Virus record (IMG/VR): IMGVR_UViG_2541047952_000002
Direction: 5' to 3' (one strand)
Length of the DNA stretch: 24,461 bases
From: a virus
Taxonomy: Duplodnaviria; Heunggongvirae; Uroviricota; Caudoviricetes
Part shown: in pieces, positions 3,949 to 10,405 of the stretch
Position numbering within the stretch: position 1 is the stretch's first letter
Layout: every line of letters starts with the position of its first letter
Notes under the pieces: generated by a model
The model's database searches: none
What the model saw: the letters and a program-made list of their open reading frames with translations, nothing else
Told to the model about the DNA's origin: nothing
Position numbers and translations under genes: made by a program

Positions 3949-4802
3949 GCACCATCCTGAAATGGGCGGGAAATAAAACTGCCATAATGTCCGAACTGAA
4001 AAAACATCTTCCTGCTGGCCCGCGACTGGTTGAACCTTTCGCGGGTTCCTGTGCTGTGATGATGGAGACGGATTATCCCAGCTATCTGGTTGCGGATATT
4101 AATCCTGATTTAATCAACATCTATAAAAAGGTTGCCGCTGATTGTGAATCGTTTATATCTCGCGCCAGAGTTTTATTTAAGGAAGCAAACAGGGAGGTGG
4201 CTTATTACAACATAAGGCAGGAGTTTAATTACTCAACTGAAATTACTGATTTCATGAAAGCGGTATATTTCCTGTATCTCAATCGTCACGGTTACCGTGG
4301 TTTATGTCGCTATAACAAGAGCGGGCATTTCAACATTCCCTACGGTAATTATAAAAATCCGTATTTCCCTGAAAAAGAAATTCGCGCATTTGCAGAAAAG
4401 GCCCAGCGAGCAACGTTTATCTGCGCCAGCTTTGATGAAACGCTGGCGATGTTGAAGGCGGGGGATGTGGTGTATTGCGATCCGCCGTATGACGGTACGT
4501 TTTCCGGCTATCACACTGACGGCTTCACTGAAGATGACCAGTATCACCTGGCATCTGTTCTTGAACATCGGTCATCAGAAGGACATCCGGTCATTGTTTC
4601 TAACAGTGACACATCCCTGATCCGTTCGCTGTATCGCAATTTTACTCACCACTACATCAAGGCAAAACGCAGCATCGGTGTGGCAGCTGGCGAGGGTAAA
4701 TCAGCAACAGAAATCATTGCTGTTTCCGGGCCGCGCTGCTGGGTGGGATTTGATTATTCGCGTGGCGTGGATAGTTCTGCCGTGTACGGAGTACGTGCAT
4801 GA
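3945..4802 (+). CDS. dam: DNA adenine methyltransferase, Dam-like (N6-adenine MTase; GATC specificity inferred)
   Basis: ORF 3885..4802 trimmed to ATG 3945 (GGAGG 6 nt upstream, overlaps preceding stop). Motifs 'LKWAGNK', 'EPFAGS' (AdoMet binding), '[16 protein letters not shown]', 'PYFPE', 'FAEKAQ', 'VVYCDPPY' (catalytic DPPY), 'VSNSDT' are collinear with E. coli Dam as I recall it. Confidence 0.85.
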
Positions 4803-7213
4803 GTCATGCCGATATGAACAACTGCTGCGGCTTTAACGAAGCTGCCGCATCGTTCTCATGGAACAGCCCGAAAAAGGCCATTAACCCTTATCTGGACCCG
4901 GTGGAAGTTGCGCCGGTTTCTACGCTTTCAAACCTGATCACTCTGTACGCTGCCGATAACGAGCAGGAACAGCTGCGCCGTGAGGCGCTGAGTGATCAGG
5001 TCTGGGAGCGTTATTTCTTTAATGAATCCCGTGATCCTGTCCAGCGCGAAATGGAACAGGATAAGCTCATTAGTCGGGCAAAGCTGGCGCATGAGCAGCA
5101 GCGTTTTAATCCGGATATGGTCATTCTGGCGGACGTCAACGCCCAGCCCTCCCATATCAGCAAGCCGCTGATGCAACGTATTGAATATTTCAGCAGCCTG
5201 GGCAGGCCAAAGGCTTATTCCCGCTATTTGCGTGAGACGATTAAGCCATGTCTGGAACGACTGGAGCATGTCCGCGACTGTCAGCTATCCACTTCTTTTC
5301 GCTTTATGGCAAGCCATGAAGGGCTGGATGGCCTGCTTATCCTGCCTGAAATGAGTCAGGATCAGGTGAAGCGCCTGTCTACCCTTGTCGCTGCGCATAT
5401 GAGCATGTGCCTTGATGCCGCTTGTGGTGATTTGTATGCCACCGATGACGTTAAGCCAGAGGAAATCCGCAAAACATGGGAAAAGGTGGCAGCGGAAACC
5501 CTGCGTCTGGATGTTATTCCGCCTGCGTTTGAGCAACTCCGTCGGAAAAGAAACCGCCGTAAACCCGTGCCCTATGAACTCATTCCGGGTTCGTTGGCGC
5601 GTATGTTGTGTGCCGACTGGTGGTATCGGAAATTATGGAAGATGCGTTGCGAATGGCGGGAAGAGCAGTTGCGTGCTGTCTGCCTGGTCAGCAAAAAAGC
5701 ATCCCCCTATGTCAGCTATGAAGCCGTGATGCATAAACGTGAGCAGCGCCGTAAGTCGCTGGAGTTTTTCCGTTCTCATGAACTGGTGAACGAAGACGGC
5801 GACACGCTGGATATGGAAGATGTGGTAAACGCCAGCAGCAGCAACCCGGCGCATCGCCGCAATGAGATGATGGCCTGTGTTAAAGGTCTGGAGCTTATCG
5901 CGGAAATGCGCAGTGACTGCGCCGTTTTCTACACTATCACCTGTCCGTCGCGTTTCCATTCCACGCTCAATAACGGCAGACCCAACCCGACCTGGACAAA
6001 CTCGACGGTAAGACAAAGCAGCGACTATCTGGTCGGCATGTTTGCTGCATTTCGTAAGGCGATGCACAAAGCCGGATTGCGCTGGTATGGCGTGCGGGTG
6101 GCTGAGCCGCATCATGACGGTACAGTTCACTGGCACCTGTTGTGTTTTATGCGCAAAAAAGACCGCCGCGCCATCACTGCATTACTGCGTAAGTTTGCCA
6201 TCCGTGAAGACCGCGAGGAGCTGGGCAATAACACTGGGCCGCGCTTTAAGTCTGAGTTGATTAACCCGCGCAAAGGAACGCCGACAAGCTACATCGCGAA
6301 ATATATCAGTAAGAACATTGACGGGCGTGGTCTGGCTGGCGAGATCAGCAAGGAAACGGGTAAATCTCTGCGTGATAACGCTGAATACGTTAATGCCTGG
6401 GCGTCTCTGCATCGTGTTCAGCAATTCCGCTTCTTTGGCATTCCGGGGCGTCAGGCTTACCGTGAACTGCGATTGCTGGCTGGTCAGGCGGCAAGGCAAC
6501 AGGGTGACAAAAAAGCAGGTGCTCCGGTACTGGATAACCCGCGCCTTGATGCCATTCTGGCTGCTGCTGATGCTGGCTGTTTTGCCACCTACATTATGAA
6601 GCAGGGCGGCGTGTTGGTTCCCCGCAAATATCACTTGATCAGAACCGCTTATGAAATCAACGAAGAGCCGACCGCCTATGGCGATCACGGCATTCGTATT
6701 TATGGCATCTGGTCACCCATTGCAGAGGGCAAGATCTGCACTCATGCAGTGAAGTGGAAAATGGTTCGTAAGGCCGTTGACGTTCAGGAGGCGGCAGCCG
6801 ACCAGGGCGCTTGCGCCCCTTGGACTCGTGGCAATAACTGTCCCCTTGCTGAAAATTTGTACCAACAAGGGAAAGACAAATCAGCTGATGGAGATACCAG
6901 AACGGATATCACCCGCATGGATGACAAGGAGTTGCACGATTACCTGCACAGTATGAGCAAAAAAGAGCGCCGGGAACTGGCTGCAAGGTTACGCCTGGTG
7001 AAACCGAAACGGCGTAAAGACTACAAACAGCGAATTACAGACCATCAGCGACAGCAGCTCGTCTATGAACTGGAGTCCAGAGGATTTAATGGCAGCGAGA
7101 AAGAGGTCGATTTACTCCTTCGCGGCGGCAGTATTCCGTCAGGAGCAGGTCTGCGTATCTTCTATCGGAACCAGCGTTTGCAGGAAGATGATAAGTGGCG
7201 AAACCTGTATTAA
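4799..7213 (+). CDS. A: Replication initiation endonuclease gpA (HUH rolling-circle initiator)
   Basis: 804 aa. Start ATG overlaps dam stop (ATGA). HUH motif '[15 protein letters not shown]' and catalytic tyrosine motif '[11 protein letters not shown]' as in P2 A. Confidence 0.9.
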
Positions 7214-7305
7214 TTACGAGGGTTAACAATTCGTGCTCTTAATAATACCAGGCATATCAGGCTGATGAACGTAAAAAAACGTTTTACATCAGTAAGATTA
7301 TTATA

Positions 7306-7325
7306 TACTGTAAATATAAACAGTG
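7306..7325 (+). promoter_or_regulatory. LexA (SOS) box upstream of the tum/DinI-like module
   Basis: TACTGTAAATATAAACAGTG contains CTGT-N8-ACAG and matches 17 of 20 positions of the consensus TACTGTATATATATACAGTA. It lies 42 bp upstream of ATG 7367, with TTTACA (7283-7288) as a possible -35. Confidence 0.6.
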
Positions 7326-7366
7326 GTTATGTATACAGTATTGCTTGTGGTGTCATAGGAGGAAAG

Positions 7367-7555
7367 ATGCAGGACTATTTTTTGGAGTCTTTGAAGCTCC
7401 AGCGCATTGATTTTTTTCTTAAGCTTGTAGCGGCTAGTGAGTGTAGTGATGAAGAGAAGGGGCTGGCTTTGCAGTGGGTTTCTGAACTGACAGATGAACT
7501 CATGGCAAAAATCAGAAGCCACGAATACAACCGCTCAATGGATGTCATCAGCTGA
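7367..7555 (+). CDS. Hypothetical small protein (62 aa), first gene of the LexA-controlled module; possible Tum-like antirepressor component
   Basis: ORF 7265..7555 trimmed to ATG 7367 preceded by GGAGGA. Position downstream of gene A and behind a LexA box parallels 186 tum. No motif recognised. Confidence 0.4.
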   Translation: MQDYFLESLKLQRIDFFLKLVAASECSDEEKGLALQWVSELTDELMAKIRSHEYNRSMDVIS

Positions 7556-7565
7556 GGGGACTTTT

Positions 7566-7799
7566 ATGCGCATTGAAATAATGATCGATAAAGAGCAGAA
7601 GATTAGCCAGTCTACCCTGGACGCCCTTGAATCCGAGCTTTACCGCAATCTGCGCCCCCTGTATCCCAAAACGGTAATTCGTATCCGTAAAGGTAGCTCT
7701 AACGGTGTGGAACTGACCGGACTGCAACTGGACGAAGAAAGGAAGCAAGTGATGAAAATTATGCAGAAGGTGTGGGAAGACGACAGCTGGCTGCATTAA
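7566..7799 (+). CDS. dinI: DinI-family protein
   Basis: ORF 7494..7799 trimmed to ATG 7566 (GAGGGGA upstream). 'MRIEIMIDKEQKISQSTLDALESELYRNL...' and C-terminal 'KVWEDDSWL' resemble E. coli DinI ('MRIEVTIAK...TWESADDWF'). Confidence 0.7.
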   Translation: MRIEIMIDKEQKISQSTLDALESELYRNLRPLYPKTVIRIRKGSSNGVELTGLQLDEERKQVMKIMQKVWEDDSWLH

Positions 7800-7807
7800 G
7801 AAACGTT

Positions 7808-7837
7808 GCCCCCAAGAGAATTTATTCTGATGGGGGC
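7808..7837. terminator. Hairpin between convergent dinI-like and GNAT genes (probable bidirectional terminator)
   Basis: GCCCCCAAGAGAAT-TT-ATTCTGATGGGGGC forms a long imperfect stem, followed by TAGTTTGGG. Confidence 0.45.
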
Positions 7838-7912
7838 TAGTTTGGGCAATGAGTGAAACAAGGCGTAAGGTGGTCGGCCTGTTGGCAGCGTTGAAAAGCG
7901 AAAGCCGCAATA

Positions 7913-8332
7913 CTATAAATTAGTTTTTATTAGATAGTGCCTTTGTGCTCCTGCTTTAGGGAAATCAGGTAATGACATTTGAAGTATATAACCCTGTTTT
8001 TCATAAAAGGGGAGCGCCTGGAAGCTAAATGTATCGACAAGGCCATGAATACAACCGTTCATCACACCTTCTTTCTCAGCCATGCTCATAAGTTTGCTAC
8101 CCAAACCGCCACTCCGTGTTGATTCACTCACCCAAAGATAATCAATACACAGCCATGGGCCTTTCCTGTTCGCAATTAATCCACCTACCATCTCGCCGAT
8201 TTCATTTCTGCAGTAAACACCGATCTGTCCATTTTTACTAAAATCGATAAACTGAGCATTATAGCTTCTTAGCCCAGCTAACAGTTCTTCTCTATCATAT
8301 TCAGTAACTTTATTAACTACTTGAATGTCCAT
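7913..8332 (-). CDS. GNAT-family N-acetyltransferase (139 aa), cargo gene
   Basis: Acetyl-CoA-binding-type motif '[17 protein letters not shown]' (R/Q-x-x-G-x-G/A), then 'FYEKQGY'. AT-rich, opposite strand to neighbours. Confidence 0.7.
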
Positions 8333-8548
8333 ACATATCCGTTTTAGTGATTATTTTATTTAGTGCTAAATGTTATAGATAAGTTTCCTTTGTGTTTCAA
8401 TACATTGTTGTAAATTAAATCAATTTACCATTTCCAGGTCCGTTCCTTGCTCACAGCGAACCTTTACCTTTGTTAGCTCGAATGTGTCGTATTCAAACGG
8501 TCATTCAGATACGGATTTTCACTTCCCTTAGATTGTGCATGACTATGC

Positions 8549-8680
8549 CGCATGAATCTGCATGATCGTTTGAGGATCGTTTTTGCTAAGGCCCACCAGA
8601 ACTGGCGGGCTTTTGCGTAGATCATGCAGGTGCATGAAAACCACTACATAAAGCGGGCAGGCGTGGCGGGGATACGAGCG
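8549..8680. other. Candidate cos/packaging region: inverted repeats, terminator-like hairpin and a cos-like GGCGTGGCGGGGA motif
   Basis: GGCGTGGCGGGGA (8660-8672) matches the first 13 nt of the 186 cohesive end as I remember it (GGCGTGGCGGGGAAAGCAT; P2 GGCGAGGCGGGGAAAGCAC), then diverges. Upstream are a 17-nt imperfect inverted repeat (CATGAATCTGCATGATC 8551-8567 / GATCATGCAGGTGCATG 8620-8636) and a GC hairpin plus T-run (8591-8614). Confidence 0.3.
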
Positions 8681-8803
8681 CGCGCACGTGGCTTCTAGAC
8701 ATATATCAGAGGCTTTGTTTCAATCGTAATTTATTAAATTGATTATGTTTGAATGATTTGTCATATTCTATAAGTGTTCAAGATGGCAATAAGAGGTGTC
8801 TTA

Positions 8804-10405
8804 ATGTTTGAAATTCCGAAGGCTGATGGTTCTAGCTTTGAATTGAAGTTGGCTCCTGGAGAGGTTGTTTTCTTGTTAGGACCAAATGGTTCCGGAAAGT
8901 CTTCTATAATTGATTTTCTATACAAAAAATATCCTAATAGATTTGAGAAAATAATTGCGCATAGACAAAATTGGATTCAGTCTAACAGATCTAACGTATC
9001 CAATCATGAGAGTCATCAAACATCAGGTTATATTAAGAGTTGGGATTCGCAGGAGGAGTCAAGATACAAAGATGATTATTCCGGTCGTAGAACAGAGATC
9101 TTACTGAACAAAATAATCTCTGCAGAGAATCATGCAGCCAGAACTTTTGTCAATAATTTCTCCCTAGCTTCTCGCGAGGGGCGTGGTAATTTAACTCTTA
9201 CGGAAACACCAGTTGAGAAAATTAATAGATGCCTGAATGAAGCTTTTATTAATATTACGATAAGAATAGATGATTCGGATTCTTTGTTGGTAAGTCGCAA
9301 TGGCTCTGATGAATATAGCTTGGCTCAGCTTTCTGACGGAGAAAGAAATGCAATATTTATTGCAATTGCCATTTTTACAGCCCCAGACGGCGCCTTTTTT
9401 TTAATCGATGAGCCAGAGAGGCATTTGCATCCTTCAATATCTCATTCGTTGATTAAATCTCTTTTAAATGAGCGCCCCGATTGTGGATATGTAATATCCA
9501 CACATGATTTATCTTTGCCATCAGCAGTACCTCATTCCAGAGTGTTGTTGCTGAGAGATTGCGTGTATGAAAATATGCGACCAGTTCGTTGGTATATAGA
9601 CGCAATTGACTCATTGGCGGAAATTGATGAGAGGCTTCGAGAAGACATACTTGGGTCAAGGAAAAAAATAATCTTTGTTGAGGGTAATACATCATCAAGC
9701 TTAGACCAGAAGCTATACTCGATAATTTTTCCAGGTTATTCGGTAATACCAAAAGCTAGTTGCGATTATGTCGAGCGTTCTGTGGATGGTCTGAGAGAGT
9801 CGGAAAATCTTCATCATGTAATTCCATATGGTATTATTGATAATGATAATAAACCTGAACGACAGGTTTCAAATCTTGAAATGAAAGGGGTTTATTCTTT
9901 AAATGTGCACTCAATTGAATCAATATACTATCATCCGGAATTAATTTTAAACGTAATTAATAATTATAAGGATTCTCAAAATATATCGGACCCCGATGCA
10001 TTATATGCGCAGTTGTGTGACGAGTCATTGTCCATGCTTTCCGAGCACAAAGAAAGACTATGCTGTAGAGCAATAGAGAAAGCCATTAGGTCTAAGCTAT
10101 TTTCGAATTTGCCAACTTTGAGAAGTATTGAAGCGGGGAATGATGTTAATATAAATATTAACGTTGGTGATTTTTTGAGAGAAGAAATTGTCTTTTTTGA
10201 AAACTGTCTACGTCAGCAAGATCTCATCAGTTTAGTCGAAAAATATCCAATTCGTGAAACTGCTTATATCGCTAAGGTGCATAAGCTATTGGGGTATTCA
10301 ACGCGTCAACTTTACGAGCATAATCTTTTACGCCTTGTAACGTCGAATTCTGAGGTGAAAAATATTGCCAAAAGGCTGATTGGCAATATTTGCAATGTTA
10401 TATGA
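8804..10405 (+). CDS. Solitary ABC-type ATPase fused to a Toprim-like nuclease domain (OLD-family / PARIS AriAB-like candidate anti-phage protein)
   Basis: ORF 8774..10405 (GTG) trimmed to ATG 8804, 7 nt after AAGAGG. Walker A 'GPNGSGKS', ABC signature-like 'LSDGERN', Walker B plus His 'FFLIDEPERHLHPS'. C-terminal half has 'KKIIFVEGNTSS' (Toprim glutamate) and 'GIIDNDNK' (DxD). Strongly AT-rich. Confidence 0.8.
   Translation: MFEIPKADGSSFELKLAPGEVVFLLGPNGSGKSSIIDFLYKKYPNRFEKIIAHRQNWIQSNRSNVSNHESHQTSGYIKSWDSQEESRYKDDYSGRRTEILLNKIISAENHAARTFVNNFSLASREGRGNLTLTETPVEKINRCLNEAFINITIRIDDSDSLLVSRNGSDEYSLAQLSDGERNAIFIAIAIFTAPDGAFFLIDEPERHLHPSISHSLIKSLLNERPDCGYVISTHDLSLPSAVPHSRVLLLRDCVYENMRPVRWYIDAIDSLAEIDERLREDILGSRKKIIFVEGNTSSSLDQKLYSIIFPGYSVIPKASCDYVERSVDGLRESENLHHVIPYGIIDNDNKPERQVSNLEMKGVYSLNVHSIESIYYHPELILNVINNYKDSQNISDPDALYAQLCDESLSMLSEHKERLCCRAIEKAIRSKLFSNLPTLRSIEAGNDVNININVGDFLREEIVFFENCLRQQDLISLVEKYPIRETAYIAKVHKLLGYSTRQLYEHNLLRLVTSNSEVKNIAKRLIGNICNVI

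Follow-up and report, generated by a model that had tools for sequence, protein, structure and literature searches.

The closest known relatives of the locus studied here are the SOS-controlled induction modules of phage 186 and of several P2-family prophages. In phage 186, Tum reversibly sequesters the CI repressor after LexA-dependent derepression of the promoter p95 (PMC7708051), and CI binding has been demonstrated only for this Tum protein (cited in PMC3121763, PMC7708051). The 186 record annotates p95 (TTCACA-18-TACTGT), with a -10 formed by the first 6 nt of the LexA site, upstream of the 146-aa Tum. In Fels-2 and PSP3 tum is split in two (Lemire et al. 2011, PMC3121763); the PSP3 record describes tumA as "similar to 5' end 186 tum; UV induction of prophage" and tumB as "similar to dinI and 3' end of 186 tum". 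The mutagen MX has been reported to raise expression of the Fels-2 gene STM2727, which belongs to the predicted operon STM2726-STM2727-STM2728, by 5.5-14.8-fold, and the gene is listed with the LexA regulon (PMC2225428). In the prophage DuoHS of E. coli HS, mitomycin C no longer causes lysis or virion formation either when tum is deleted in frame or in the presence of a lexA(Ind-) allele (PMC12055606).

We describe here a locus that we take, with a probability of about 0.9, to be the SOS-induction operon of a Fels-2/DuoHS-type (186-like) P2-family prophage. The feature is a known and experimentally characterised kind of module, present here as a very common allele; for 186 the circuit is textbook knowledge, Fels-2-like phages have also been tested for it, and no conceptual gain is claimed. 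The additions made in this study are modest, namely a colicin-like double operator in front of the module and a LexA-like box at int.

Genome context and distribution of the module

The DNA analysed, referred to below as the window, is a stretch of 24,461 nucleotides from a prophage of the P2 family (Peduoviridae) whose early region is of the 186 type. It covers part of the prophage, whose overall integrity cannot be asserted from it. The gene order is int, 186-type cI, a CII-like activator gene, a Dam methylase gene, the gpA replicase gene, the tum module, about 2.6 kb of cargo, and P2-type portal and terminase genes. A previous reading of the sequence alone had proposed a 186-type circuit on a P2-like backbone, and this is confirmed by the 186-type CI, the gene order and the P2-type portal and terminase. 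Its underlying observation, a LexA box followed by two small ORFs, is real. The features considered here are as follows.

1449-2024, - strand: cI, 186-type immunity repressor, 189/191 aa; proposed target of TumA
4799-7213: gpA replicase gene (phrog_91), directly 5' of the tum module
7283-7288, + strand: -35 hexamer TTTACA of the putative tum promoter (p95 equivalent); invariant in 8 diverged phages
7304-7311, + strand: -10 region TATACTGT of this promoter; invariant in all 8 phages
7306-7325, + strand: LexA box 1, TACTGTAAATATAAACAGTG, overlapping the -10 region
7321-7340, + strand: LexA box 2, CAGTGGTTATGTATACAGTA, overlapping box 1 by 5 nt (CAGTG)
7367-7555, + strand: tumA (ORF1), 62 aa; predicted antirepressor gene, homologous to the N-terminal part of 186 Tum
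7566-7799, + strand: tumB (ORF2), 77 aa; DinI family
7808-7837, + strand: hairpin 3' of the tumB stop codon; RNA folding -20.9 kcal/mol, z = -3.4

The module is widespread. It shares 97% DNA identity with that of the Salmonella phage Fels-2, to which homology breaks off at position 7797, and many Klebsiella prophages carry a module that is 98% identical at the DNA level. In E. coli it is present in 1125 of 5426 complete genomes, about a fifth, and the split tumA/tumB arrangement is also found in Salmonella, Klebsiella and Yersinia phages. Over the regions that are shared, the window as a whole is 93-96% identical in DNA sequence to DuoHS. Positions 1-44 are identical to the chromosomal flank in E. 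coli HS (L012:11900-11943), immediately downstream of rcdA, which makes E. coli or a near relative the probable host, with the prophage inserted where it is in HS. In E. coli HS there are approximately 350 additional nt between the chromosomal flank and int.

The SOS operon probably ends at the hairpin at 7808-7837, which separates it from the variable cargo. No T-run follows the hairpin, and a consensus terminator scan of positions 7100-8000 called no terminator; an Rfam search of positions 6800-8800 gave a chance-level match only. Downstream of the hairpin, and convergent with the tum operon, lies a gene for a 139-aa GNAT acetyltransferase (7913-8332, - strand; Pfam Acetyltransf_1, phrog_3810), which had no match in PADLOC. 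It is followed by a gene for a 543-aa ABC-type ATPase with a DUF4435 domain (8774-10405, + strand), which matches the fused AriAB model of PADLOC (PDLC02982, 8.4e-58), that is, PARIS anti-phage defence. The part of the genome bounded by tumB and the portal gene, which holds this fused AriAB gene, is a variable cargo slot, with other genes in Fels-2 and E. coli HS. The module predicts that the prophage would be induced by DNA-damaging agents, including genotoxic antibiotics, with consequences for phage release and for the spread of cargo such as the PARIS-type defence gene.

The two genes of the module

The sequence-only reading had described a 62-aa ORF and a 77-aa DinI-family protein, and both are borne out at 7367-7555 and 7566-7799, the latter by Pfam DinI. 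ORF1, preceded by a ribosome-binding site AGGAGG at 7357-7362, is usually annotated as hypothetical, and it matched no family in Pfam, NCBIfam or PADLOC searches. BLASTP produced no alignment between ORF1 and 186 Tum, and the homology is visible only at the profile level. ORF1 matches phrog_698 with an E value of 5.9e-38, and the first 70 residues of 186 Tum match the same family in register (5.9e-6); in the opposite direction, ORF1 matches phrog_1993, the family of PSP3 TumA and of the Tum N-terminus, also in register (0.002). An alignment of 28 diverse homologues of ORF1, compared with 186 Tum by hhalign, gave a probability of 94.9% and an E value of 4.5e-8, with residues 3-44 aligned to residues 3-44. 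By hhalign and by the reciprocal PHROG cross-matches, ORF1 is homologous to the N-terminal part of 186 Tum, and it lies just downstream of gpA in a P2-family genome with a 186-type CI; we refer to it as tumA. The AlphaFold model of ORF1 is a helical hairpin of two helices (pLDDT 88); the profile of the ORF1 family matched none of the PDB sequences. TumA is identical to the DuoHS protein over all 62 residues and shares 60 of 62 residues with that of Fels-2.

The ribosome-binding site of tumB, GAGGGG at 7554-7559, overlaps the stop codon of ORF1. The encoded protein covers the whole Pfam DinI profile (PF06183; positions 1-63 of 63) with 81.3 bits against a cutoff of 24.2 (E 6.6e-23), is 41% identical to residues 71-145 of 186 Tum (E 3e-24), and matches the structure of E. 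coli DinI (1GHH) with an E value of 2.7e-6. Its C-terminal WEDDSW resembles the WESADDW of DinI. Against the NCBIfam equivalog of host DinI (NF007893) it scores 42.7 bits, with a cutoff of 111, and tumB is by its sequence a phage DinI-like paralogue and not the host orthologue. TumB is the same in DuoHS and in Fels-2 (77/77 residues each). By analogy with its family, TumB may bind RecA filaments and modulate coprotease activity. Profile searches relate both ORFs to Tum or DinI, the opposite of the outcome that the sequence-only reading had named as speaking against it.

Diverged P2-like contigs (L139, L141 and L144) carry a tumA-like gene, with 32-42% identity, between gpA and ogr/portal. These same homologues have kept a single LexA box and have no DinI-like gene downstream. 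As tumA occurs without a DinI gene in diverged relatives, the DinI module is optional and tumA and tumB are separable modules. The sequence of 186 Tum has the look of two such modules fused together.

Function in prophage induction

The published genetics of DuoHS concern proteins identical to those of the present locus. The deletion primers NHR24 and NHR28 fuse ...ATAGGAGGAAAGATG to TGAGGTGACTTTTATGCGCATTG (PMC11195241). The two primer halves map to the window at 7347-7369 exactly and at 7553-7575 with one mismatch, and the whole deletion-junction primer has, as expected, no match to the intact sequence. The primer halves delimit ORF1, and therefore the gene that was deleted in DuoHS is the 62-aa ORF, with the DinI-like gene left intact. 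The earlier proposal that this prophage is inducible by UV or mitomycin is supported by these experiments, which were carried out on identical proteins (PMC12055606).

It might be argued instead that the module is an SOS-modulating accessory (a moron) that benefits the host through its DinI-like protein, and that ORF1 is unrelated to Tum and is not a switch. Such a view would fit with the lack of a Pfam or NCBIfam family for ORF1 and its usual annotation as hypothetical, and with the fact that DinI homologues are common accessory genes of prophages. However, ORF1 is linked to the Tum N-terminus by profile homology, the deletion of the identical gene in DuoHS abolished induction with the DinI-like gene in place, and diverged phages keep a LexA-boxed tumA without a DinI gene at the same genomic position. 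We consider it improbable that the module is such an accessory, and regard it as an induction switch.

Whether the two ORFs are a natural two-protein arrangement or a frameshifted tum had been left undecided by the sequence-only reading; our data speak for the first and against the second. The 186 Tum is one 146-aa protein that spans both halves, ORF2 lies in the +1 frame relative to ORF1 and its frame is open back to 7494, all of which could be taken to mean that the ORFs are the remains of a 186-like tum broken by a frameshift or stop codon, and that this decaying pseudogene leaves the prophage non-inducible by SOS. Against this, both genes are under strong purifying selection (dN/dS 0.08-0.15 for tumA and 0.05-0.10 for tumB versus eight relatives, or about 0.05-0.15 over both, and 0.05-0.10 for both in the comparisons at dS 0.8-1.9), each has its own ribosome-binding site, and the identical split recurs in the 1125 E. 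coli genomes and in the Salmonella, Klebsiella and Yersinia phages. ORF1 always measures 189 nt, and the spacer between ORF1 and ORF2 varies from 10 to 13 nt, which places ORF2 at a frame offset of +1 in the present prophage, Fels-2, HS, Cartapus and Kp phi12.1, of +2 in SEN8, SopEPhi and Kp phi13.6, and of 0 in MLG42 and PSP3. This variation in frame offset among relatives rules out a frameshifted tum. In addition, tumA stands alone in diverged relatives, in 186 itself an internal start gives a separate DinI-like product of 76 aa, and the split version is functional in DuoHS (PMC12055606). A decaying pseudogene is very improbable, and the annotation of PSP3, the dN/dS values and the varying offset all agree with a natural two-gene operon. 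A programmed frameshift or readthrough that would give a Tum-like fusion was also considered and was rejected; the offset varies between 0, +1 and +2, and there is no slippery site at AGC-TGA.

Predicted promoter and LexA operator

The near-consensus LexA box that had been noticed at 7306-7325 stood up well to closer analysis. This box 1, TACTGTAAATATAAACAGTG, has 3 mismatches to the 20-nt consensus TACTGTATATATATACAGTA (a 17/20 match), and a match as good was found in none of 100 dinucleotide-preserving shuffles of the window. It also contains the sole occurrence of CTGT-N8-ACAG in the window. The box had been placed 42 bp upstream of the genes; its upstream position is correct, while the distance is not, as 41 nt separate the box from the ATG. 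Box 2, which was missed in the first reading, has 5 mismatches to the LexA consensus, including GTGG in place of CTGT. The two overlapping boxes have the form of a colicin-type double operator, and LexA may occupy both.

The position of the tum promoter was deduced from sequence conservation and from comparison with p95 of 186. Two readings of the -10 hexamer are possible: TACTGT, 17 nt from the -35 and as in 186, or TATACT, for which the spacer is 15 nt. A strict consensus promoter scan of positions 7100-8000 called no promoter at 7283-7311, because the -10 matches the consensus at only 3/6 positions with the 17-nt spacer or at 5/6 with the 15-nt spacer. In an alignment of the intergenic region from 8 diverged phages, TTTACA, TATACTGTA, CAGTGG, TATACAGT and the ribosome-binding site form invariant or nearly invariant islands in a spacer that has otherwise diverged. 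Both halves of box 1 are invariant in these phages, as is the right half of box 2, TATACAGT. Upstream of four diverged TumA homologues (32-42% identity), a near-consensus LexA box is found 35-42 nt before the start codon. Judged from these sequences, tumA is preceded by a predicted LexA operator that overlaps its promoter. The notion that the match to the LexA box is fortuitous in AT-rich promoter DNA, and that the operon is under phage regulators (CI or Apl), can draw on the minimal CTGT-N8-ACAG, which by itself is weak evidence and arises by chance in 23 of 100 shuffles, but it is very hard to reconcile with a full-consensus match that is absent from the shuffles, with half-sites that are invariant where the surrounding spacer is not, with the recurrence of near-consensus boxes upstream of such diverged homologues, with the block of DuoHS induction by lexA(Ind-) (PMC12055606) and with the mutagen induction of the Fels-2 operon (PMC2225428).

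The diverged homologues, 186 and PSP3 all have a single LexA box, and that of 186 and PSP3 aligns at the position of box 2 (7321-7340). From the single box in 186, PSP3 and the diverged homologues, it appears that the double box is derived in the Fels-2/DuoHS clade. Among viral contigs with the double-box pattern, all 112 that could be evaluated have a TumA-like ORF downstream; as the motif was itself fixed by this pattern, the result shows the specificity of the context and not independent conservation. A literature search on TumA/TumB and on the operator string found nothing relevant.

The CI repressor and a proposed mechanism

The predicted target of TumA, the CI repressor, matches the Pfam families Phage_CI_repr (2.8e-33) and Phage_CI_C (2.7e-27), and is identical to the CI of E. 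coli HS DuoHS over all 189 residues. A match to Peptidase_S24 fell below the Pfam cutoff, which fits with an antirepressor route and not with a self-cleaving repressor. The CI of 186 (L004:1934-2512) is about 30% identical to that of the present prophage. The CI of Fels-2 (L005:2192-2824) is approximately 40% identical overall, though TumA is 97% identical between both prophages; identity reaches 62% in the N-terminal HTH domain, where 17 consecutive residues, RDSFPAEWVIQCALETG, are the same, and is 29% over the remainder. The comparison hints that TumA may recognise the conserved N-terminal domain of CI, or that it may act across immunity types.

We propose the following sequence of events. 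In the lysogen, LexA would sit on the operator overlapping the -10 and the start of a sigma-70 promoter (TTTACA ... TATACTGT) and would keep the two small genes silent. Upon DNA damage, RecA-stimulated self-cleavage of LexA would free the promoter, and tumA-tumB would be transcribed. The 62-aa TumA would then act as an antirepressor that binds the 186-type CI, presumably directly, and blocks its binding to operators; with CI inactivated, the early lytic promoter would fire and the prophage would excise and replicate. The 77-aa TumB, which is not sufficient for induction, probably modulates RecA filament activity and so tunes the SOS signal.

A LexA-like box at int

On the other side of cI, a further sequence resembling a LexA site was found in front of int.

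1083-1102, - strand: LexA-like box, CACTGTATGTATAACCAGTG, with 5 mismatches to the consensus (4 in the DuoHS copy)
1078-1106, - strand: promoter-like site TTGACA-17-GAAAAT (10/12); the int start codon, at 1053, lies approximately 25 nt downstream

The box fills the spacer and the -10 of the promoter-like site. It is conserved in E. coli HS DuoHS, in the Klebsiella phages 4LV2017 and KP12 and in the E. coli phage 813R9, with diverging sequence on either side of the box; the homology to these phages at the int site ends just past the -35. From its sequence, the site may be an SOS-inducible int promoter. Between cI and int there is also a 63-aa ORF (1242-1433, - strand) with a hydrophobic, signal-like N-terminus and six cysteines. 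No Pfam family matches it, the E. coli HS annotation calls it hypothetical, and it is missing from Fels-2 and 186, in which cI and int are directly adjacent.

Comparison with known systems

The module of the present prophage resembles that of 186 (p95-tum-orf97) in its LexA-repressed promoter with a box overlapping the -10 (TACTGT), in its location directly after gpA, in the order of the antirepressor segment and the DinI-like segment, and in having a 186-type CI as its target. It differs from 186 in several respects. The two segments are fused in the single 146-aa Tum of 186, within which internal starts give free DinI-like products, whereas they are two genes here; 186 has one LexA box and the present prophage two that overlap; a homologue of orf97 is absent downstream, where unrelated cargo is found instead; and TumA is similar to the Tum N-terminus only at the profile level, with a CI that is also distant.

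The split two-gene arrangement, at the same position, is shared with tumA/tumB of PSP3 and with STM2728/STM2727 of Fels-2, and the Fels-2 module has in addition the same double operator, though the CI of Fels-2 is only about 40% identical. In PSP3, by contrast, TumA belongs to phrog_1993 (phrog_698 here), hhalign relates it to the ORF1 family with an E value of only 0.004, there is one LexA box, and the two genes are in the same frame. In DuoHS, described in the Phollow study (PMC12055606), the TumA, TumB and CI protein sequences are identical to those described here, and the promoter and operator show no difference between the A-run (about 7272) and position 7330; DuoHS also has the same left chromosomal flank. 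Functional tests there showed that the module is required for mitomycin C induction (PMC12055606). DuoHS differs in carrying two hypothetical genes 3' of tumB, in place of the GNAT gene and the fused AriAB (PARIS) gene. The Gifsy/Fels-1 modules (GfoA, GftA) are likewise LexA-repressed operons that combine a small antirepressor with a DinI homologue (PMC3121763), but dinI comes first, in the reversed order, and the antirepressors and their target repressors are of unrelated lambdoid types.

The operator can be compared with colicin promoters (e.g. cna, cra), which likewise have a 35-nt double box with boxes sharing CAGTG. The 35-nt operator is identical to the colicin N promoter at 30 of 35 positions without gaps, and aligns gap-free just upstream of the genes for colicin N, colicin R and a colicin-like pore-former; BLAST matches to these sites span 42-43 nt with 84-88% identity (E 1e-5 to 2e-3), with E values of 1e-5 to 5e-5 for the colicin operon promoters. 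In colicin operators of this kind, two LexA dimers occupy the paired boxes and repression is very tight (PMC2994835). The colicin promoters are different in their replicon and downstream genes and in a -35 that is placed differently, with an 8-nt indel upstream, and the resemblance could reflect either common descent or convergence on LexA binding. Tentatively, and with somewhat less than even confidence, we suggest that the Fels-2/DuoHS clade has swapped the single LexA box of tum for a colicin-type double operator, maybe exchanged with Col plasmids, which would set a higher and later SOS threshold, and that it has added a LexA-controlled promoter before int (1078-1106, - strand). If this were true, antirepressor and integrase would both be wired to LexA, and the double operator together with the int box could explain a thresholded or delayed induction and a coordinated excision.
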